In this document: positions 17,871-47,442 of the stretch, piece by piece
Layout of the letters: the number at the start of each line of letters is the position of its first letter
Numbering within the stretch: position 1 is the first letter of the stretch
Assembly (NCBI GenBank): GCA_018814465.1
Contig: JAHIZR010000228.1
Location: 173-64,172 of the forward strand
Source of the DNA: a bacterium
GTDB taxonomy: Bacteria; Electryoneota; RPQS01
Direction of reading: 5' to 3'
Length of the DNA: 64,000 nt
Notes under the pieces: generated by a model
The model's database searches: none
What the model was told of the DNA's origin: nothing
The model's input: only the letters and a program-made list of their open reading frames with translations
Position numbers and translations under genes: made by a program

Positions 17871-19322
17871 ATGGGACTTCTTGAAAAACTCGGCTGGCGG
17901 CGCCCCGTCGCCGTGCTCGGCCTGCCGCTGCGCGAGAGCGACTCCGGTCGCTGGATTCGCATCGGCGGCGGTCTGCGCTATAACCGCGATATGTCCGCGA
18001 CGGATATCTACGAAACGTGCGACCGCGCCTTTCGCGCCTGGCGGCTCAATCCGTTCGTCAAGCGCTTAACGGAAATGTGGGTGAACTTCGTCGTCGGCGC
18101 CGGCCTGACGTTCACGGCTAACGACGAGCGCGTGCAAGCCGTGCTGGACGACTTCGTAAAACGCAACAAGCTCAACCTGCGCATGAAAAAGCGCGCGCGC
18201 GAAGCGTTTCTGTTCGGCGAACTGATCTGCGCGCCGAACGTCAACGTCGCGACCGGCCACACGCGGCTCGCCTTTCTCGATCCGCTGCAAGTGAGCAAGA
18301 TCGAGCTCGATCCTTTCGACGGCGATAATCCCGTCGCGATCGTCGTCTCCGGACAGGACGGACAGGCGCTTAGCTTGCCGATCGTGCGCGAAGACCTCGC
18401 CAGCGCCGCCGCGCTGCGCATTCCGGAACTCTACGGCGCTAAACGGCCCGGCGGGTTCAACGCGCCGTTGCTCACGCTGGGCCGGAAAGTCGGACGCGCC
18501 TTTTACCTCGCGTTCAACAGCATCGTCGGCTCGACGCGCGGCACGTCCGACCTGCTTACGATCCTCGACTGGTGCGCGGGCACGGAAGATCTGCTCTGGG
18601 AATTTCGCGCGCGGGCGGAAAGCCAGAACCGGCTCTTTGGCGTGATCACGATCAAGGGCGCGACACCCGCGCAATTACGCAAGTACCGCGACAAGGATTC
18701 GGCGGAGTACATTCCCCCGCCCGGCACGGAAAAGGAAGCGTGGGCTTACGCGAACGAGAATATTACCTTCGCCTTCGTTAATCCGCAGCTCGGCGCGAGC
18801 GATATCGCGGAAGCCATTCGCCTGTTCAAGTCGATGATCGAGATCGGCGGCGGTCCGCCGGAACACTACCTGGGACAAGCCAAGGAGATGACCTACGCCT
18901 CGGCGCAGGATGCCTCGAATCCCTTCCTGCAGCAGATCCGCTCCGGTCAGCAGGAATTCACGGAATTCTGGCTGGAGATCGCGCAGTACGTCGTGGATCA
19001 GAAGCTGATCTTCACGAACGAGCTGGACGGTATCACGGACTTGACGGTTGCCGTCAAAGCGCCGGAAGTCGTGCCGGAGGACGCGAAGTATAAAGCGGAG
19101 CTCGCGAATCAGTTCACGCAGGTCGTTGTGGCGTGGCGCGCGAATAATTGGGTCACCGACGAGCAGGCGATTGACCTGATGCATCAGATCGCGCAAGCCG
19201 CCGGGATGAAAGTCAAAGTCGTAGAGCAGATCATCGGCCCGGTCGCCGCGCAGCAGAACTGGGCGCGGGAAGCCTTGCGGAGGATCAGCAATCCAGAATC
19301 AAACACGAGGTTACAGCAATGA
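17871..19322 (+). CDS. Portal protein
   Basis: About 480 aa, immediately after the large terminase. Overall portal-like sequence. Confidence 0.7.
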   Translation: MGLLEKLGWRRPVAVLGLPLRESDSGRWIRIGGGLRYNRDMSATDIYETCDRAFRAWRLNPFVKRLTEMWVNFVVGAGLTFTANDERVQAVLDDFVKRNKLNLRMKKRAREAFLFGELICAPNVNVATGHTRLAFLDPLQVSKIELDPFDGDNPVAIVVSGQDGQALSLPIVREDLASAAALRIPELYGAKRPGGFNAPLLTLGRKVGRAFYLAFNSIVGSTRGTSDLLTILDWCAGTEDLLWEFRARAESQNRLFGVITIKGATPAQLRKYRDKDSAEYIPPPGTEKEAWAYANENITFAFVNPQLGASDIAEAIRLFKSMIEIGGGPPEHYLGQAKEMTYASAQDASNPFLQQIRSGQQEFTEFWLEIAQYVVDQKLIFTNELDGITDLTVAVKAPEVVPEDAKYKAELANQFTQVVVAWRANNWVTDEQAIDLMHQIAQAAGMKVKVVEQIIGPVAAQQNWAREALRRISNPESNTRLQQ

Positions 19323-19822: not shown

Positions 19823-21235
19823 ATGCACAACAATCATAACACGTTGAACGGGTTTCCCGTGAAACACTGCCGACTCGATGAACTTACGAAAGCAAGCTGG
19901 AATCCGCGCCAAATCAGCGATGAGCAAAAAGCAGCCTTGCAACGCTCATTGGAAACCTTCGGCGTCGTCGAACCCATCGTCTACAACGAGGTGACCGGAC
20001 ACGTGGTGGCCGGACATCAGCGGCTCGACGCGCTAATCGCGAATGGCGAGACCGAAACCGACGTGGTCGTCGTTCAACTCGACGAGACGCGCGAGAAGCA
20101 GCTCAACGTCGCGTTGAACCGGATCAGCGGCGAATGGAATTACGATCTGCTGCAGGAACTGTTCGCCGACTTACAAGCCGAGGGCGCGGATTTGTCGCTG
20201 ACCGGGTTCAGCACCGCCGAGCTCGACGATTTGCTCGCTCCAGTCCCGAGCGCCGCGACCACTCCCGAACTCACGGAAGAACAAGCAGGCCATCTGAATC
20301 GCGCTTGGCAGGAATGGGCGCAGGATACGCTCAAGTTCATCGACCTGCTCGCGCCGCACGGCGTCGTCTCGCATAACTGCACTCCGGCGATTGCCCGCGT
20401 TCATTTCCTGCGCGCGCTGTATCAAGGCGAACGCTATCCGCGCTGGTGCTCGCATGCGTTTCACCCGCGCCAGCTGCACGTTGCCGGACACGCGCATAGC
20501 ATGGTGGACGCGCTCAAGTTCTTCGCCGAAGATCCGACGCTGGAATACGGCGACTCCTTCCGCTGGTGCCTGAAGGACCGGCCGTCCATCGACGTGATTC
20601 TCGCGCAGAGCCTGCCGCTCGGCAGTTGCCGGATCGCGCCGGACTTTCCGGCGGATCTGGCGCGCGACTTGATCGACGAATTCTGCCCGGCAGGCGGGGC
20701 GGTGCTGGATCCCTGTCACGGCTGGGGCGGACGGCTCGTCGGCTTCCTGCTCAGCCGCGCCATGGCTTACACCGGCTTCGATCCGGCGGAAGCCACGCAC
20801 ACCGGCACGAAAAAACTCTTCGCGGATTTTTCCCGCTTCACGCCCGGCAAGCAAGTCGACTTCCAGTGCCGCTGCTTCGAGGAAAGCGAACTCGAACCGG
20901 AAAGCTTCGATTTCGCGCTCACCTCCCCGCCCTATTTCAACGTCGAAAAATACGAGGGCGAGGACTCCAGCCACCGCAAGTACAAACAGTTTCAAGTCTG
21001 GGACGCCTGCTTCTACCACGAACTGATCGCGCGCACGGCGCAAGCGCTTAAACCGCACGCCGTCTTCGCATTGCAAGTCGGCAATCAGAAACACCCGCTC
21101 GAACAGCGCGCGAAAGAGCACGCGCAGCGGTGCGGCTTGACCTATCTCGAAACGCGCGCGTCGGGCATGACGAATAACTGGACGGAGACGCCGGAAGCGG
21201 ACGGCGAAGTCGTCGTGCTCTTTCGCAAAGGATGA
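19823..21235 (+). CDS. ParB-like nuclease domain fused to a DNA methyltransferase (N6A/N4C family, SPPY motif)
   Basis: N-terminal VVAGHQRLDAL ParB motif. FxGxG-like DPCHGWGG and catalytic LTSPPYFN. Confidence 0.75.
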   Translation: MHNNHNTLNGFPVKHCRLDELTKASWNPRQISDEQKAALQRSLETFGVVEPIVYNEVTGHVVAGHQRLDALIANGETETDVVVVQLDETREKQLNVALNRISGEWNYDLLQELFADLQAEGADLSLTGFSTAELDDLLAPVPSAATTPELTEEQAGHLNRAWQEWAQDTLKFIDLLAPHGVVSHNCTPAIARVHFLRALYQGERYPRWCSHAFHPRQLHVAGHAHSMVDALKFFAEDPTLEYGDSFRWCLKDRPSIDVILAQSLPLGSCRIAPDFPADLARDLIDEFCPAGGAVLDPCHGWGGRLVGFLLSRAMAYTGFDPAEATHTGTKKLFADFSRFTPGKQVDFQCRCFEESELEPESFDFALTSPPYFNVEKYEGEDSSHRKYKQFQVWDACFYHELIARTAQALKPHAVFALQVGNQKHPLEQRAKEHAQRCGLTYLETRASGMTNNWTETPEADGEVVVLFRKG

Positions 21236-21628: not shown

Positions 21629-22483
21629 ATGCCAGTAACACCGGATAAAATCAGGCAATTCGAGCGACGCGTGAAAGCCTTGCAGGCGAGCGCGGAACAC
21701 CTCGCCAAGGACGTCCGCGCGCGCGTCAATGCGGTCGTAAACGAGCACCGGCGGCGCATCAAGGAGCTGCTCGATCAACAGCCGCTGCAGCAGGCTGCAA
21801 TCGCGGCGGCGGACGTGCCGCGCCTCAAAACTCAGCTGCGCCGCGAAGTCGACGAAATGCTCGCCGAAGCGATTGAACTCGTGCAAGCCGCCGAAGAGCT
21901 CGCTTGGTCGAAAGGGTTCGCCGCCGGTCAGGAATTAGCCGCCAGTCTCGGCCTTGAAGCGTCCTTCTTCGCGCCGTCCCTCGCTTTGCGCACGATCGCA
22001 ACCGGCTATACCGCCGATCTGATTCGCTCGATTGCGGACGACCTCATGCCGAAAGTCAACGGCGTGATCGCGCGCGGCGTCTTAGGCAACCTCTCGCCCT
22101 ACGCGGCGATGCAGGAGATCGACGTGCTCCTTGGCCGCGGCGGACAGCGCGGCGTGAGCTATCAAGCCGAACGCATCGTGCGCACCGAAGTGCAGCGCGT
22201 CTACTCCATCGCGCTCGACACGCAAGTACAAGCGCTCGCGGCCATGGCGGAACATCCGCAAAAACTCCGCAAACAATGGGTTGCCGGACCGTTTCGACAG
22301 GGTCGCCGCGAGGAGCATCAGCAGATCGACGGTCAGACCGTTCCGGTCGCCGAGCCGTTCAAACTCCCGGATGGCACGCGCCTGATGTATCCGCGCGACC
22401 CCGCCGGCCCGCCGCATCAAACCATCAACTGCGGCTGTTCTTGGATCATCGACCCGGACTCGCTCGCCGACGCCATGCACTAA
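21629..22483 (+). CDS. Head morphogenesis protein (Mu gpF / SPP1 gp7 family)
   Basis: C-terminal region with conserved His and a Cys pair (HQTINCGCSW). Position after the portal. Confidence 0.65.
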   Translation: MPVTPDKIRQFERRVKALQASAEHLAKDVRARVNAVVNEHRRRIKELLDQQPLQQAAIAAADVPRLKTQLRREVDEMLAEAIELVQAAEELAWSKGFAAGQELAASLGLEASFFAPSLALRTIATGYTADLIRSIADDLMPKVNGVIARGVLGNLSPYAAMQEIDVLLGRGGQRGVSYQAERIVRTEVQRVYSIALDTQVQALAAMAEHPQKLRKQWVAGPFRQGRREEHQQIDGQTVPVAEPFKLPDGTRLMYPRDPAGPPHQTINCGCSWIIDPDSLADAMH

Positions 22484-22518: not shown

Positions 22519-22558
22519 CTCCTATAAGATTCGTACGAACCTTATAGGGGTTTTTTAT
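22519..22558 (+). terminator. Rho-independent terminator. The hairpin CCTATAAG...CTTATAGG is followed by GGTTTTTTAT. An A-run upstream makes it potentially bidirectional.
   Basis: Perfect 8-bp stem with an inner palindrome TTCGTACGAA, then a T-run. Confidence 0.7.
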
Positions 22559-22566
22559 AACAGGCC

Positions 22567-22595
22567 TTGACGAGGCCCGCCAGCAACTGTAGATT
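22567..22595 (+). promoter_or_regulatory. Sigma70-like promoter TTGACG-17 nt-TAGATT upstream of the capsid polyprotein gene
   Basis: Hexamers and spacing read from the sequence. Confidence 0.4.
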
Positions 22596-22628
22596 CAGGA
22601 TGTACGCTCGCTTACTCGATTAATCATA

Positions 22629-25061
22629 ATGCACCGCATCAAATTCAATCGCATTTCCGAATCGCGGATTTTAGCCGCCGATAAATCCGGCAAGATCTGG
22701 GAAGTCCTCGTGATCAAGGAAGGACTGTCCCGCAACTTGTGCCCGGAAGGCTTCCGCTATTACTACGACGCCGCCATGCTCAAGACGGCGCTGCCGCTGT
22801 TCGATAATCGACCCGCCTATGCCTTCGAGTTCAGCTCGGAATACTTCAATCATGTGCCGGACGGCGCGATCCCGATCAAGCAGCAAGCCGGAATCGCCAA
22901 GAATAAAGTCGGCGTCTACACGAATCCCCATTGGGGCCAGGACGACGAGGGTAACGAGGGTATTATCTGCACCTTGACGCTCGTCGACGTCGATCTGGCC
23001 GGAAAGATGCGCGAAGCCTGGGACAGCGGCCTGCGCGATTTCGTCGGCTACTCCATCGACGGTGACGGCGGCTATGAGCTCGTCAAAGTCGGCGGACAAA
23101 CCGTCGCCAGCGTTCAGTTACGAAGTATCGACTCTATCGATGTTGTGACCTCTCCAGCGGCGGGAGGCAAAAATATCCGCTTAGTTGCCGCACAATCCAG
23201 TGATCAAACCGAGGACAAGAAACCCATGAACGTAAAAGTGCGATCCGCCATCTTCCGCATTTTAGAGGCGCGGAAGGCCGCGAAAGAGCGCTCCGACCGG
23301 ATCCTCGAAGCGGACGACGCAAGCGCCCTCACCGTCGCCGTTGAGGAACTCAAAAAAGAAGCCGATGTCATGCAGCGGCAATCCGGCATGGAACAAGCCG
23401 TGCAACTCGCGCAAGAAGCGATCTCCGCGCTGCAAGCGGGCAACGCGGACGGCGCGCTCGTCGCGCTGCAGAAGTTGCTCGACTTGCAAGCGCCACCGGC
23501 TCCGGCACCGGCGGCGCAGAACTCCGCTGCGCCCGCCGCGCAATCCGGACAGCCTTCTCCCACTGTCGTCAATCCGACCGCGCCTGCGCAGGCAGCGGAC
23601 AACAAACCGCAGGAACCGGCCGGCGCGAACGGCGGCAGCGCCGGTACGCCGGATCAAATGCAACAGCTCAAGGAAGAAGTCGCGTCGCTCAAGACGGAGC
23701 TCGATCAGGATAAGGCCATCAAGCTGATCGAGGCCAGCAACCTGCCCGACGCTTCGAAAGAGCATTTAAAAGAAAGCGTGCGCGAACGCAGCTTGACGAG
23801 TCAGCGCGTGCGCGAAGCGATTCAAGCCGAACAGAAGTACCTCGAGCGGCTCGGCATCGGCAATACGGAAAACGTGCAGTTGCGCGAAGCCGGACGCGAG
23901 GACGTGATCCTCGCCGTGGAAGGCTTCTTCGACAACGCCGATCAGAAGGATCCGAAAGGCCGCGTCGTGCGCCGCTTCCGCAATATCCGCGAAGCAGCGA
24001 TGCGCGGTTTCGGCGTATCGCACGATGTCGCGCAAAACGCCGACCGGCTGCTCGGCATGCTCTGCCGCAATTCTTACGCCTCGTCCGTCCGCTTAGCGGA
24101 GAGCATGACGACGGCGACTTTCGATCAAGTCTTCGGCGACGCGCTGCACCGCAAGCTCATGAAAGAGTACCAGCTTCCGCTCTGGAACGACTGGCAGAAC
24201 ATCGTGGAGATCGTGGACGATATCACCGACTTCCGCGAGCACAACTTCATCCGGCTCGGCTACTGGGGCGAACTGCCCGACGTGAATCCGGACGGCGGCA
24301 CGTTCCAGGACTTGCCGGATCTCGCCGATGAGCAAGTTGGGCTGAGCGTGACCACCAAGGGCGGCATCTTCTCGATCACGCGCAAAATGCTCGTGAACGA
24401 CGACATGCGCGCGATCCGGCTGCTGCCGGTGCGGGCCGGGCGAGCGCTCAAGATGCGCATCTACCGCGCGGTCTTCGGCGCGCTCGTCAATAATGTCGCC
24501 TGCGGTTACGACAACACCGCCTTGCTGCATACCAACCACGCCAACAAAGCCGGCGGCTCGGATACCTTATCCGCGCCCGCGCTGAACGCCGGACGCTCGA
24601 AAATGTTCATGCAGAAAGCCGCGCTCTCCGACGCCACCGAGCCGGAATACCTCGGCGAAGCGAACACTCCGCGCTGGCTGATCGTCCACCCGGATAACGA
24701 ACAGATGGCGCTCGCGCTTACGAAGTCCGTCGCCGCCGTGCAGCTCGCGCAAGCGGCGGGCGGCTACGCGGCGAGCCAGTTCCTCGCGTCTAATACCGTC
24801 CCGAACCTCCATCAGAACACGATGGATTACATCCTCTGTCCGCGCATTCCGAACGCCACTTACTGGTGGATGCTCGCGGATCCGTCCTACGTGCCGACCA
24901 TCGCTGTCGGTTTCCTGAACGGCCAGCGCGAACCGGAGCTCTTCCAGGAAGTCGCGAACAGCGGTTCGAACTTCACGGCGGATAAAGTCAGCTACAAAGT
25001 GCGCCACGACGCCGGTGTCAAGCCGGTCGATCATCGCGGCGTCTACGGCTTCAACGGTTAA
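22629..25061 (+). CDS. Fused prohead protease (Mu gpI-like) - coiled-coil/Pro-Ala scaffold - HK97-fold major capsid protein
   Basis: Single 810-aa ORF. The N-terminal ~200 aa are protease-like, a coiled-coil and PAPAPAAQ linker sit in the middle, and the C-terminal ~430 aa are capsid-like. Confidence 0.6.
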   Translation: MHRIKFNRISESRILAADKSGKIWEVLVIKEGLSRNLCPEGFRYYYDAAMLKTALPLFDNRPAYAFEFSSEYFNHVPDGAIPIKQQAGIAKNKVGVYTNPHWGQDDEGNEGIICTLTLVDVDLAGKMREAWDSGLRDFVGYSIDGDGGYELVKVGGQTVASVQLRSIDSIDVVTSPAAGGKNIRLVAAQSSDQTEDKKPMNVKVRSAIFRILEARKAAKERSDRILEADDASALTVAVEELKKEADVMQRQSGMEQAVQLAQEAISALQAGNADGALVALQKLLDLQAPPAPAPAAQNSAAPAAQSGQPSPTVVNPTAPAQAADNKPQEPAGANGGSAGTPDQMQQLKEEVASLKTELDQDKAIKLIEASNLPDASKEHLKESVRERSLTSQRVREAIQAEQKYLERLGIGNTENVQLREAGREDVILAVEGFFDNADQKDPKGRVVRRFRNIREAAMRGFGVSHDVAQNADRLLGMLCRNSYASSVRLAESMTTATFDQVFGDALHRKLMKEYQLPLWNDWQNIVEIVDDITDFREHNFIRLGYWGELPDVNPDGGTFQDLPDLADEQVGLSVTTKGGIFSITRKMLVNDDMRAIRLLPVRAGRALKMRIYRAVFGALVNNVACGYDNTALLHTNHANKAGGSDTLSAPALNAGRSKMFMQKAALSDATEPEYLGEANTPRWLIVHPDNEQMALALTKSVAAVQLAQAAGGYAASQFLASNTVPNLHQNTMDYILCPRIPNATYWWMLADPSYVPTIAVGFLNGQREPELFQEVANSGSNFTADKVSYKVRHDAGVKPVDHRGVYGFNG

Positions 25062-28004: not shown

Positions 28005-29153
28005 ATGGCTTTAGGAACAGCGACCGGTTATTCCGGCATCATGGGCGCCGCGAAGGAAACCGCCTTCCGCACCCCGGTCAATATCAACACACGGATTCCG
28101 ATCACTGCGGAGGGCCTGAGCGACGCAATCAAGCTGATCGAACAAGAAACGCTCATGGGTTACCCGGGCCGGGACACGCTCGACGCGGGACCGATTTCCG
28201 TCACGGGTTCGGTCGATACCGAAGTGCGCTTCGCGACGGCGAACAGCGGGCGCACGATCTTCTTCGGCAACGACTTGCTCGTCGCGCTCGCGATGGGCGC
28301 CTGCGCATGGCACGCCGGATCGAGCACGAACATCCTCAAGCTTTCCGACGATCTCGACAAGTCCGCCACGCTCGCGCTGCATAAGAAGATCGCGATCTGG
28401 GAATTCGTGTCGTGCTTCTTTAAGGGCTTCAAATTCAGTGGCAAGGCCGGGGAAATCTGGAAGACCTCGTTCGATACCGTCGCTTACAAATTAATGCGCG
28501 GCGATCCGTCGAGCGGTAGTCAGCAGAACAAGCAAGCGCAGTTCAACGCACTGAGCGTCACGGCGGGCAAGCGCGGACTCTTCGGCGACAGCACGTTTAT
28601 CCTCGCCCCGGTCAACACGGCTTGGGGCGGCGGCGAGAGCAATTTCCGTATCGGCTTAAACGAATTCAGTTTGAATTACGAGAGCGGTTTGACGGATCCG
28701 GAATTCAGCACGCCCGACGCCGCCGGCGGACACACGGACGCGAACTTGACGATTCAGCCGGTGCGCGGCGGATTCCGCAAGTGCGAATTGGAATTCTCCT
28801 TGCCGCGCTATCAAGACTTGAGCGGCGGCGCGCTGCAATGGGGCTCGCAGCTGCTGGCTTGGAAAGACACGCAAGCGCCCTTGCAACTGCTCGGCACGAT
28901 TCAGCCGAGCGGTGACAGCACGCGCATCATCAAAGCGATGTGTCCGTATCTCGTGATTACCGCGGTCGATGCCGCAATCAGCGGTCCGGCACCGGCTTCG
29001 ATGAAAGTCAAAGCGACGCTGCTGCGCGGCGCGGGCCGCAATACCGTCGTGACGGACGCCGCCGGATCCTCCATCGCCGAGGAGTTCCAGCTCGAATTCA
29101 AGAACAGCAACAACGCGGCATCTGAGTATGGCCGCAATGCCGCCATTTTCTAA
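28005..29153 (+). CDS. Major tail (tube) protein, paralog 1
   Basis: Shares an N-terminal ALGxxxGYS segment and the PVRGGFRK...SLPRY motif with the next gene. Confidence 0.55.
   Translation: MALGTATGYSGIMGAAKETAFRTPVNINTRIPITAEGLSDAIKLIEQETLMGYPGRDTLDAGPISVTGSVDTEVRFATANSGRTIFFGNDLLVALAMGACAWHAGSSTNILKLSDDLDKSATLALHKKIAIWEFVSCFFKGFKFSGKAGEIWKTSFDTVAYKLMRGDPSSGSQQNKQAQFNALSVTAGKRGLFGDSTFILAPVNTAWGGGESNFRIGLNEFSLNYESGLTDPEFSTPDAAGGHTDANLTIQPVRGGFRKCELEFSLPRYQDLSGGALQWGSQLLAWKDTQAPLQLLGTIQPSGDSTRIIKAMCPYLVITAVDAAISGPAPASMKVKATLLRGAGRNTVVTDAAGSSIAEEFQLEFKNSNNAASEYGRNAAIF

Positions 29154-47366: not shown

Positions 47367-47442
<76 letters not shown>

Follow-up and report, generated by a model that had tools for sequence, protein, structure and literature searches.

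A single-frame protease, scaffold and HK97-fold capsid gene of a prophage-like region probably encodes two nested proteins

Introduction

Does a gene whose single reading frame covers prohead protease, scaffold and major capsid protein make one polyprotein, or more than one product? The question is raised by an ORF in the 64,000-nucleotide stretch of DNA analysed here (the window), which the initial annotation had read as a single protease-scaffold-major capsid polyprotein of 810 aa. The parts are all of known kinds: prohead proteases, scaffolds, HK97-fold capsid proteins, protease-capsid fusions and nested scaffold genes have each been described. The reading that we favour, and consider probable, is that the gene encodes two nested in-frame proteins with a common C-terminus, which co-assemble and are then trimmed by the protease that one of them carries.

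Results

Gene and setting

The ORF on the plus strand starts with ATG and runs for 810 codons to a TAA. The internal frameshift or missed stop by which the initial annotation might have failed was not found: the frame has no internal stop, and one long ORF, of 618-965 aa, is kept in 28 of 30 IMG/VR loci. NCBI holds the identical 810-aa protein, from a metagenome-assembled genome (MAG), as a hypothetical protein, and nine relatives with 28-82% identity span 98-100% of the query.

This is a head-assembly gene of a prophage-like region of ~33 kb. The head module reads portal, Mu-F-like head morphogenesis gene, 810-aa gene and tail genes, with the portal, Mu-F-like and tail-tube-like genes adjoining it on the same strand. 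A Mu-like transposable phage was considered and rejected, no transposase being found among the ten large prophage ORFs scanned against Pfam. Two possible signals, both consensus matches only and together spanning 22521..22595, lie upstream of the gene; promoter-like sites in the region are no more numerous than expected from shuffled sequence.

22521-22548, plus strand: 12-bp hairpin with a T-run, upstream signal (consensus match only)
22567-22595, plus strand: promoter-like TTGACG-17-TAGATT (consensus match only)

Domain architecture

All three parts named in the initial annotation are present in the frame. An AF2 model, fold searches and Pfam together place a prohead-protease fold at the N-terminus and an HK97 fold at the C-terminus, and the protein can be divided as follows.

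22629..25061, plus strand: full-length ORF, 810 aa, 88.5 kDa; a single frame for protease, scaffold and major capsid protein
22677..23189, plus strand: prohead serine protease domain, aa ~17-187; assemblin/T4 gp21 fold, of a family without a Pfam model
23190..23225, plus strand: disordered, hypervariable linker between protease and scaffold, aa 188-199; gappy, variable alignment columns
23232..23489, plus strand: helical scaffold segment 1, aa 202-287; five helices in the AF2 model
23490..23648, plus strand: disordered Pro/Ala/Gln-rich low-complexity spacer (APPAPAPAAQ...), aa 288-340; gappy alignment columns, length varying among relatives
23649..24101, plus strand: helical scaffold segment 2, aa 341-491; AF2 helices 341-479, disordered end 481-491
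24102..25058, plus strand: HK97-fold domain, major capsid protein, aa 492-810; a cut after E491 would give 319 aa and 35.2 kDa

The linker is modelled with pLDDT below 50 over residues 188-201, and confidence then climbs: it is ~55-65 around residue 200 and reaches 82-92 across residues 230-290. The scaffold-like part comprises residues 200-491, some 290 aa, and is helical with a disordered Pro/Ala/Gln-rich stretch, in agreement with the coiled-coil and low-complexity middle first proposed: helices at 202-287 and 341-479 flank the disordered residues 288-340. The second helical segment contains a V-R-R-F-R-x-I-R-E-A block in which V447, R449, F450, E455 and A456 are nearly invariant.

The C-terminal domain is an HK97-fold capsid protein, related to the Mu gpT capsids. 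PF25209 (Phage_capsid_4) matches residues 491-806 with E=1.2e-42 and 147.5 bits, against a cut-off of 27, and the match covers profile positions 2-260 of 262. In Foldseek the domain has 310 PDB matches at E<=1e-3, with phage capsids and encapsulins on top, among them HK97 (2ft1, 1ohg), D3 (9ous), cyanophage and mycobacteriophage capsids; the AF2 pLDDT is mostly above 90 across residues 495-810. A profile search of PDB sequences matched the Mu GpT-domain capsids 8rkc and 8rkx at E=2e-7, Mu-like_gpT (PF10124) matches 16 of 58 relatives, and Mu gpT itself scores 32.9 bits against the family HMM. The initial annotation thus had the fold right and the length wrong: its ~430 aa shrink to nearer 320 aa, residues ~380-491 being helical and belonging either to the scaffold or to an N-terminal extension.

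The junction of scaffold and capsid carries a candidate site for maturation, identified with an [LIVM]-x-E motif borrowed from the specificity of T4 gp21.

24093..24101, plus strand: candidate maturation cleavage site, L489-A490-E491 / S492, [LIVM]-x-E motif

The L-x-E at E491 is the most conserved such site of the family, occurring in 57 of 65 relatives against a background of 0.029 per residue, and E491 is invariant among close relatives. It ends the disordered segment, where the Pfam capsid domain begins, and the extrapolated position of Mu gpT residue 1 is near aa 499. Trimming perhaps occurs after Glu491; an alternative candidate cut, between E455 and A456, is kept in 50 of 65 relatives. 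A third start at M493 was considered here and rejected, as its column is M/F/L and its GGAG, just 3 nt upstream, derives from the conserved L-x-E codons.

Internal start

One ORF there is, as first described, but a single product is probably incomplete. Just past the protease domain a conserved in-frame start codon follows a ribosome-binding site, the arrangement of a nested protease/scaffold gene, and these features suggest a second product from Met200.

23226..25061, plus strand: predicted nested in-frame gene from Met200, 611 aa, 66.7 kDa; scaffold-capsid protein without the protease
23211..23215, plus strand: Shine-Dalgarno-like (SD) GAGGA, 10 nt upstream of ATG 23226

The GAGGA has an anti-SD energy of -5.9 kcal/mol, the strongest among the 19 in-frame ATGs of the ORF; with its 10-nt spacing it is a moderate SD, at the 5th percentile of its own ORF, and M1 of the 810-aa ORF has none (+0.3). 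Conservation singles out the same codon. The Met200 alignment column holds 66 Met, 4 Val and 2 Leu among 73 residues, that is, a possible start in 72 of 73, inside an otherwise variable, disordered linker, and in most related loci the equivalent codon is preceded by GGAGG, AAGGAG or GAGGA.

For statistical comparison the internal start of each locus was defined independently of SD energy, as the first ATG 10-30 residues past an AAGG motif. Among the IMG/VR loci the internal starts have a mean anti-SD energy of -8.3 kcal/mol, compared with -2.7 for 275 other in-frame ATGs (MWU P=2e-14), and in 21 of the 27 non-redundant loci the internal start falls within the lowest 10% of its own ORF (binomial P=1.6e-16). 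The dip in energy is limited to at most 2 codons around the internal start. The SD enrichment was replicated in loci from genomes and metagenomes (16/24, P=3e-11). Starts other than ATG include GTG with a strong SD, as in L012, L049 and L053. A good SD is missing from the internal site in about a quarter to a third of the loci, mostly distant, unfused ones; the unfused L032, a protease plus scaffold of 353 aa, retains the equivalent Met behind AAGGAGG. A scan of the genome collection with a narrow pattern returned two loci only.

The relative strength of the two starts is a separate matter. As a family-wide rule, a full-length start weaker than the internal one finds no support (internal SD -8.5 versus -7.7 for the best upstream candidate start, P=0.09, no significant difference); it holds only for the window and for the locus L004. 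By analogy, and going by how the two starts compare in the window and in its nearest relative only, the full-length protein would likely be the minor product and the internal one the major.

The main alternative is that every subunit is made as the 810-aa chain, from which the protease cuts out both its own domain and the scaffold, in cis or in trans, the ATG at Met200 being a mere codon. A continuous and conserved ORF, a protease with its catalytic residues intact and the annotation of related fusions in databases with one product only are all in keeping with this account. It leaves unexplained, however, why a possible start should persist in nearly every relative within a disordered and variable linker, why an SD should stand at start-site spacing in two independent sets of loci, and why a nested scaffold start should lie at the same place in unfused relatives and in Mu. 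By our own rough estimate, moreover, ~415 copies of the 490-aa moiety would fill more than half of a T=7 cavity. We therefore think it unlikely that the 810-aa chain is the only product, and infer that the internal start is used.

Protease domain

The N-terminal ~190 aa have a prohead-protease fold of the assemblin-like class, recognised by fold search alone, and the closest structure found in that search is an active protease. Sequence comparison does not place the domain in any of the curated families Peptidase_S78 (PF04586), Peptidase_S77 or Mu-like_Pro (PF10123). Pfam gives no protease match to the whole protein at E<=1 or to residues 1-220 at E<=0.1, none at E<=0.001 in any of 58 relatives, and no match of the 810-aa protein to CLP_protease (PF00574); PDB sequence searches with the whole protein and with the N-terminal profile returned nothing relevant for the protease. 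The only weak match is to phrog_15531 ('head maturation protease', E=2e-4).

The initial annotation had called this domain Mu gpI-type. Family membership does not stand: an HMM of the protease domain built from 81 sequences gives HK97 gp4 2.2 bits and Mu gpI -1.3 bits, the level of negative controls, and the domain has no match to PF10123, on which Mu gpI itself scores 330 bits. The layout does stand, with a Mu-F-like gene, a Z-like start and a gpT-related capsid. Alignment by hhalign to the single sequences of Mu gpI, HK97 gp4 and Mu gpT gave probabilities below 4% (1.3% for Mu gpI). The HK97 gp4 alignment from this series, uninformative as such, sets S142 opposite gp4 S118, four residues off the catalytic S114.

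Two residues of the domain stand out.

22851..22853, plus strand: His75 codon, putative catalytic histidine; invariant in 81/81 and 58/58 diverse relatives
23052..23054, plus strand: Ser142 codon in the motif G-Y-S-I-D-G, putative catalytic serine; invariant in 81/81 and 58/58 relatives

His75 and Ser142 are the sole invariant polar residues in 81 sequences of 21-39% identity. The putative catalytic His precedes the invariant Ser, the order found in HK97 gp4 (His65/Ser114) and in T4 gp21. Because both residues are invariant, the protease looks active, and proteolytic maturation of the 810-aa protein is plausible.

A protease fold may persist as an inactive module, serving only as extra scaffold or for targeting, with maturation left to another protease or absent. 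The domain's failure to match any curated protease family agrees with this, as does the low confidence of the His75 loop (residues 72-90) in a model built on a shallow alignment. Two lone invariant polar residues are nevertheless what one would expect of a catalytic dyad, the fold search leads to an active enzyme, and the head module yielded no second gene for a protease; we rate an inactive module as quite improbable.

Distribution of the fusion

A protease-scaffold-capsid fusion is a known kind of gene and not a rare one, so that its description as uncommon was overstated. The protease-domain family has 2,482 representatives of 50%-identity clusters at E<=1e-3, mostly of 780-950 aa, and the best 150 of these are mostly of fused length, ~85% having at least 600 aa. 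One PHROG family bears the name 'major head and protease protein'; the assemblin-fold protease family is filed there under 'unknown function'. Cultured Pseudomonas, Salmonella and Stx phages carry this capsid family joined to ClpP-type proteases, and for actinophages the three functions, capsid, protease and scaffold, are reported to be 'fused into one' (10.1101/2020.01.10.891226; PMC9671004). Unfused forms also exist, namely L032 and several ORFs of 317-590 aa. Short top matches of 196-355 aa were considered as stand-alone proteases and set aside, since most have nonsense tails or contig ends and look fragmentary.

That a sequencing error has joined a separate protease/scaffold gene to a capsid gene, in the manner of Mu I/Z and T, is barely credible, for although the window comes from a MAG and unfused relatives are known, the continuous architecture recurs in independent assemblies from many samples (the nine relatives and the IMG/VR loci), prevails among the best cluster representatives, is shared by cultured phages, and has a junction, residues 420-495, that is well conserved and confidently modelled.

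Discussion

We propose that translation from ATG 22629 would yield the 810-aa product, with its Ser/His prohead protease, helical scaffold and HK97-fold capsid domain, and that translation from ATG 23226 would yield a 611-aa scaffold-capsid protein, which resembles HK97 gp5 and its delta domain. The scaffold and capsid parts are identical in the two proteins and would let them co-assemble, so that a minority of subunits would bring the protease into the procapsid, tethered to the inner surface. Concentrated there, the protease would cut off the protease and scaffold parts, likely after the Glu of the conserved L-x-E (E491, then S492) or at E455, leaving a capsid protein that at ~35 kDa would match Mu gpT in size and freeing the interior for DNA. 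The same logic underlies Mu I/Z, lambda C/Nu3 and herpesvirus UL26/UL26.5, to which the present gene adds a fused shell protein. A shell needs ~400 subunits and few proteases, and two products would therefore solve the problem of dosing.

Two things are new here. One is a large assemblin-fold protease family, previously uncatalogued and still without a Pfam model, which can now be named. The other is the suggestion that triple-fusion genes are nested two-product genes and not simple polyproteins. We found no description in the literature of nested starts in protease-capsid fusions, or of this protease family. The model makes a testable prediction, of a ~67-kDa product from Met200 and a ~35-kDa mature capsid protein starting near Ser492. 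If this holds, annotation pipelines will need to include the internal gene among their calls. The finding of a nested start leaves the understanding of capsid assembly unchanged; single-gene capsid kits are possibly convenient parts for engineered nanocages.

Could the nested start be a general, overlooked rule of protease-scaffold-capsid fusions, whatever the family of the protease? We offer this tentatively, at somewhat less than even chances. The rule would take in the unnamed assemblin-fold family, the actinophage Peptidase_S78 fusions and possibly the ClpP-type fusions. One gene would then be a complete capsid kit that sets its own protease dose and matures itself: a small number of subunits would bring in the protease on a covalent tether, and all others would consist of scaffold and capsid alone. 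A single gene of this kind might suffice to assemble and mature an HK97-fold shell, and the main product of fusion genes would be absent from their database entries.

Comparison with known systems

A close parallel in layout is phage Mu, in which I (protease), Z (scaffold, nested in I) and T (major head protein) are likewise ordered behind a Mu-F-like gene, and a protease is followed by a helical scaffold as in the 810-aa protein. The start of Z lies in frame inside I, just past the protease domain, like Met200, and the two start contexts, GGAGaacaaacccATGaat (K-P-M-N) and GAGGAcaagaaacccATGaac (K-P-M-N), are almost equal, each with an SD 10-11 nt upstream. In Mu, however, T is a separate gene, whereas the 810-aa ORF has no stop between scaffold and capsid, and Mu gpI (PF10123) has no detectable sequence similarity to the protease described here.

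HK97 shares the design of the predicted internal product, its gp5 comprising a delta-domain scaffold and a capsid protein, and HK97 gp4 shares the fold class of the protease. The 'V-T-x-P-A' found here resembles the 'C-T-F-P-A' of gp4, a likeness that is not significant, and there is no significant sequence match to gp4 or Peptidase_S78. The gp4 gene is separate, whereas here the protease is fused in frame upstream. The scaffold part of HK97 has 102 aa (PMC5155283), compared with ~290 aa here.

Two kinds of fusion are alike in gene structure. The ClpP-type 'protease and major capsid protein' fusions of Pseudomonas phages MD8 and F10, Salmonella Fels-1 and Stx-converting phages share the order of protease, Pro/Ala-rich linker and capsid in one ORF, and the MD8 capsid scores 184 bits on PF25209 and 190 bits against the C-terminal HMM of the 810-aa family. 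Their protease has an unrelated fold (PF00574; 124.9 bits for MD8), in contrast to the assemblin/T4 gp21 fold of the present protein. The actinophage Peptidase_S78 fusions, 'common' among siphoviruses with small genomes (10.1101/2020.01.10.891226; PMC9671004), likewise combine a protease of the assemblin fold class, a scaffold and a capsid in one gene. In gp5 of phage Anseraureola, too, the first in-frame ATG after M1, M166 (P-N-M-N-D), closely follows the protease domain, and GAGAGGA stands 10 nt ahead of it. These fusions differ from ours in having a PF04586 protease, where the present family has no Pfam model, in a capsid that matches PF25209 weakly (20.5 bits, below the cut-off), and in size, with 528 aa and a scaffold that is far shorter.

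Herpesvirus UL26 (assemblin-scaffold) and UL26.5 (nested scaffold) form a comparable nested pair, but the major capsid protein has a gene of its own there, and the nested scaffold is translated from its own transcript instead of from an internal ribosome-binding site. The T4 prohead protease gp21, which has 13% sequence identity with the protease domain, is a stand-alone protein incorporated into a separate scaffolding core, whereas the protease of the 810-aa gene would enter the procapsid as part of the same chain as its scaffold and shell.

Gene and genomic setting

The fusion gene reads as one frame from an ATG through 810 codons to a TAA, with no internal stops. It lies in a phage head module, with the following features.

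Features of the head module and of the sequence around the two candidate starts
17871-19322, forward strand: portal-like gene
19823-21235, forward strand: 470-aa ParB_N plus N6/N4 DNA methyltransferase fusion gene, matching phrog_498 ('DNA methyltransferase', E=4e-46) and ParB-like PHROG families
21629-22483, forward strand: Mu-F-like head morphogenesis gene
22521-22548: 12-bp hairpin with a T-run, just ahead of the 810-aa ORF
22567-22595: promoter-like TTGACG-17-TAGATT, between hairpin and ORF
22601-22624: 7-codon mini-ORF (ATG 22601 to TAA 22624), ending 4 nt before ATG 22629
22629-25061, forward strand: 810-aa ORF
23211-23215, forward strand: GAGGA, 10 nt upstream of the in-frame ATG 23226 (Met200)
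28005-29153, forward strand: tail-tube-like gene

The ParB-methyltransferase gene is placed within the module, with the portal gene on one side and the Mu-F-like gene on the other. The hairpin, promoter-like site and mini-ORF might mark a separate transcription unit, or allow the full-length start to be translationally coupled. Between about 4 and about 37 kb the GC content stands at 57-61%, against 45-53% outside; it climbs from ~50% at the left edge and drops to 45-54% beyond the right one, and these shifts suggest a prophage or island of about 33 kb. The sole tRNA gene, tRNA-Pro (47368-47442, reverse strand), lies about 10 kb past the apparent right prophage end, and Pfam scans of ten large ORFs of the prophage region found no transposase.

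NCBI lists the identical protein as hypothetical, in a metagenome-assembled 'bacterium' genome. The query is covered to 98-100% by nine relatives (28-82% identity) and to 79% by a tenth (25% identity). The initial annotation had named a frameshift or missed stop as grounds for rejecting its single 810-aa ORF; both are excluded by the uninterrupted frame and by the full-length coverage from the nine relatives.

Capsid and scaffold segments

The assignment of the C-terminal part as an HK97-fold capsid protein is borne out. PF25209 (Phage_capsid_4) matches residues 491-806 (Pfam, E=1.2e-42), the family profile matches the solved 'Mu GpT domain' capsids 8rkc and 8rkx (E=2e-7), and 16 of 58 relatives have a Mu-like_gpT match. 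A full-length AlphaFold model, built on an 81-sequence alignment (mean pLDDT 83), has pLDDT mostly above 90 over residues 495 to 810; searched with Foldseek against the PDB it gave 310 matches at E<=1e-3, with capsids of phages (HK97, D3, cyanophages, mycobacteriophages) and encapsulins at the top. In the same model, helices at 202-287 and 341-479 flank a disordered Pro/Ala stretch (APPAPAPAAQ..., 288-340) whose length differs among relatives, and we agree that this middle segment is probably scaffold-like.

A conserved candidate internal start

The gene had been read as encoding a single polyprotein. The single frame stands; that it yields a sole product is probably an incomplete description, given a conserved methionine and Shine-Dalgarno (SD) sequence just past the protease domain. 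Both family consensus sequences have a Met here. Of the 73 residues in the Met200 column (81-sequence alignment), 66 are M, 4 V and 2 L, and the ten columns before it are gappy and variable. Residues 188-201 are modelled as disordered (pLDDT <50), and the model offers no apparent structural reason for keeping this Met.

At the DNA level, sites were chosen by a rule blind to the SD (the first ATG, else GTG/TTG, 10-30 residues past a conserved AAGG motif) and scored by the duplex energy of the anti-SD ACCUCCUUA with positions -20 to -4, more negative being stronger. Among 27 non-redundant loci (26 from IMG/VR and the window), the chosen site falls in the lowest 10% of its own ORF in 21 (lowest 5%, 16; binomial P 1.6e-16), with a mean of -8.3 kcal/mol against -2.7 for other in-frame ATGs (n=275; Mann-Whitney P 2e-14). 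A set of 24 genome and metagenome loci gives 16/24 (binomial P 3e-11) and -7.7 against -2.6 kcal/mol (n=166; P 9e-9); one metagenome locus, L060, apparently duplicates the contig of L032 from IMG/VR. The dip in the positional profile is confined to two codons or fewer from the chosen codon, so narrow that overall linker composition is not its cause, and several of the non-ATG sites are GTG with a strong SD. In the window, M200 scores -5.9, the strongest SD of 19 in-frame ATGs, and M1 has none (+0.3); across the family, the internal SD shows no significant advantage over that of the best candidate upstream start.

The same Met follows AAGGAGG (-13 kcal/mol) in L032, an unfused 353-aa relative with protease and coiled-coil scaffold, which resembles Mu gpI in layout and size. 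The annotated nested scaffold gene Z of Mu starts at the equivalent place, in nearly the same context as Met200 (...E-N-K-P-M-N-E with GGAGaacaaacccATGaat versus ...D-K-K-P-M-N-V with GAGGAcaagaaacccATGaac). Two single cases in other fusions are comparable. In Microbacterium phage Anseraureola gp5 (L035, 3807..5393), an unrelated Peptidase_S78-capsid fusion, M166 (P-N-M-N-D) is the first in-frame ATG after M1 and lies just past the protease domain, 10 nt downstream of GAGAGGA (-5.8). In Pseudomonas phage MD8 (L034, 1870..3951), M185 lies at or near the protease domain end with AAGGAGGAG upstream (-11.4), though within the conserved ClpP 'KEETWM' segment.

That the gene makes one polyprotein without initiating internally is less likely, as the conserved start codon and its SD would then have no explanation. 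A nested two-product gene is the best-supported reading, and the nested start is computationally well supported. The gene would yield a full-length 88.5-kDa protease-scaffold-capsid protein and, from Met200, a 66.7-kDa scaffold-capsid protein, in a ratio that we infer. Since both products would share the assembly-driving parts, subunits bearing the protease would enter the procapsid and hold it tethered on the inside. A limited literature search found no description of a nested start in protease-capsid fusions.

The protease domain

The N-terminal part has no Pfam family match; it matches phrog_29592 ('unknown function', E=1e-17) and, weakly, phrog_15531 ('head maturation protease', E=2e-4). 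Modelled separately, residues 1-200 have core pLDDT of 80-96. A search against viral predicted structures gave 89 matches at E<=1e-3, many of them 'prohead serine protease'/COG3740 entries. Only four columns are invariant among 81 relatives (21-39% identity), G32, H75, S142 and V173; a Ser/His prohead protease needs such an invariant pair, the His preceding the Ser, and the domain is a putative protease of a previously unnamed family. That this protease-fold domain is inactive is unlikely, given the invariant His and Ser and a search of the module for another protease, which found none.

The domain interpretation was largely right, except that 'Mu gpI-type' does not hold as family membership. 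The hhalign probability with Mu gpI is 1.3%, and the 81-sequence protease-domain HMM gives Mu gpI -1.3 bits and HK97 gp4 2.2 bits, with negative controls no worse; Microcystis phage Mae-JY22 scores 134 bits with this HMM, and Mu gpI 330 bits with PF10123.

Maturation cleavage

Conserved [LIVM]-x-E sites were sought, since T4 gp21, the nearest structure, cleaves behind the Glu of such motifs. The most conserved in the whole protein is E491 (V-R-L-A-E, then S), present in 57/65 relatives against a background of 0.029 per residue, at the end of a disordered segment and the start of the Pfam capsid domain; E455 ranks second (50/65). Extrapolated from the aligned block, residue 1 of Mu gpT, whose record notes an N-terminus confirmed through protein sequencing, corresponds to about residue 499. 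From this conservation, boundary position and gpT alignment, our leading guess is that the mature capsid protein begins at Ser492 and has 319 aa (35.2 kDa). In 24093-24107, Met493, just past the proposed cut after E491, has GGAG just 3 nt upstream (-5.4 kcal/mol); the column is M/F/L in relatives, so the motif is probably a by-product of conserved L-x-E codons rather than the mark of a third start.

Prevalence and comparison with known systems

To call such a fusion uncommon was an overstatement. The protease-domain profile matches 2,482 cluster representatives (clustered at 50% identity) at E<=1e-3, 987 of them at E<=1e-10; about 85% of the best 150 are at least 600 aa, and short matches are mostly truncated or frameshifted fragments. 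A single ORF of 618-965 aa is found in 28/30 IMG/VR loci, and PHROGs includes a family titled 'major head and protease protein'. In cultured phages (Pseudomonas MD8 and F10, Salmonella Fels-1, Stx-converting phages) a PF25209-family capsid, as in the window, is joined to a ClpP-type protease unrelated to the window's; the MD8 'protease and major capsid protein' has 693 aa (PF00574 + PF25209). An assembly artefact joining separate genes is excluded by the persistence of the architecture in independent assemblies and cultured phages.

The window's protease family also occurs in Mu gpI-like ORFs of 317-590 aa with protease and coiled coil (L032 and several of L041-L060); the family is therefore both split and fused, and such members could serve to date fusion events. 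Downstream of the L032 ORF (3686..4747, IMG/VR) is a 113-aa ORF, with no immediate capsid gene. Many relatives (P0010, P0052, P0064, P0104, P0122; loci L008-L012, L021) have N-terminal extensions of 100-400 aa before the protease domain, and the P0064 protein is 1,448 aa long; three of 58 carry a Cro/C1-type HTH domain and one a zinc-ribbon. The nearest relatives (L036, L037, genome contigs) come from uncultured Alphaproteobacteria MAGs (59-66% identity over the protease domain), and P0005 from a Calditrichota MAG (55%).

We conclude that the 810-aa gene is a known, not rare, kind of system, with a protease family that had no name before and a predicted nested start. Its layout is like that of Mu, with an upstream Mu-F-like gene, a gpT-related capsid and a matching internal start. 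The proposed nesting of scaffold within protease would follow Mu I/Z, lambda C/Nu3 and herpesvirus UL26/UL26.5, the shell protein being joined on in the manner of HK97 gp5.
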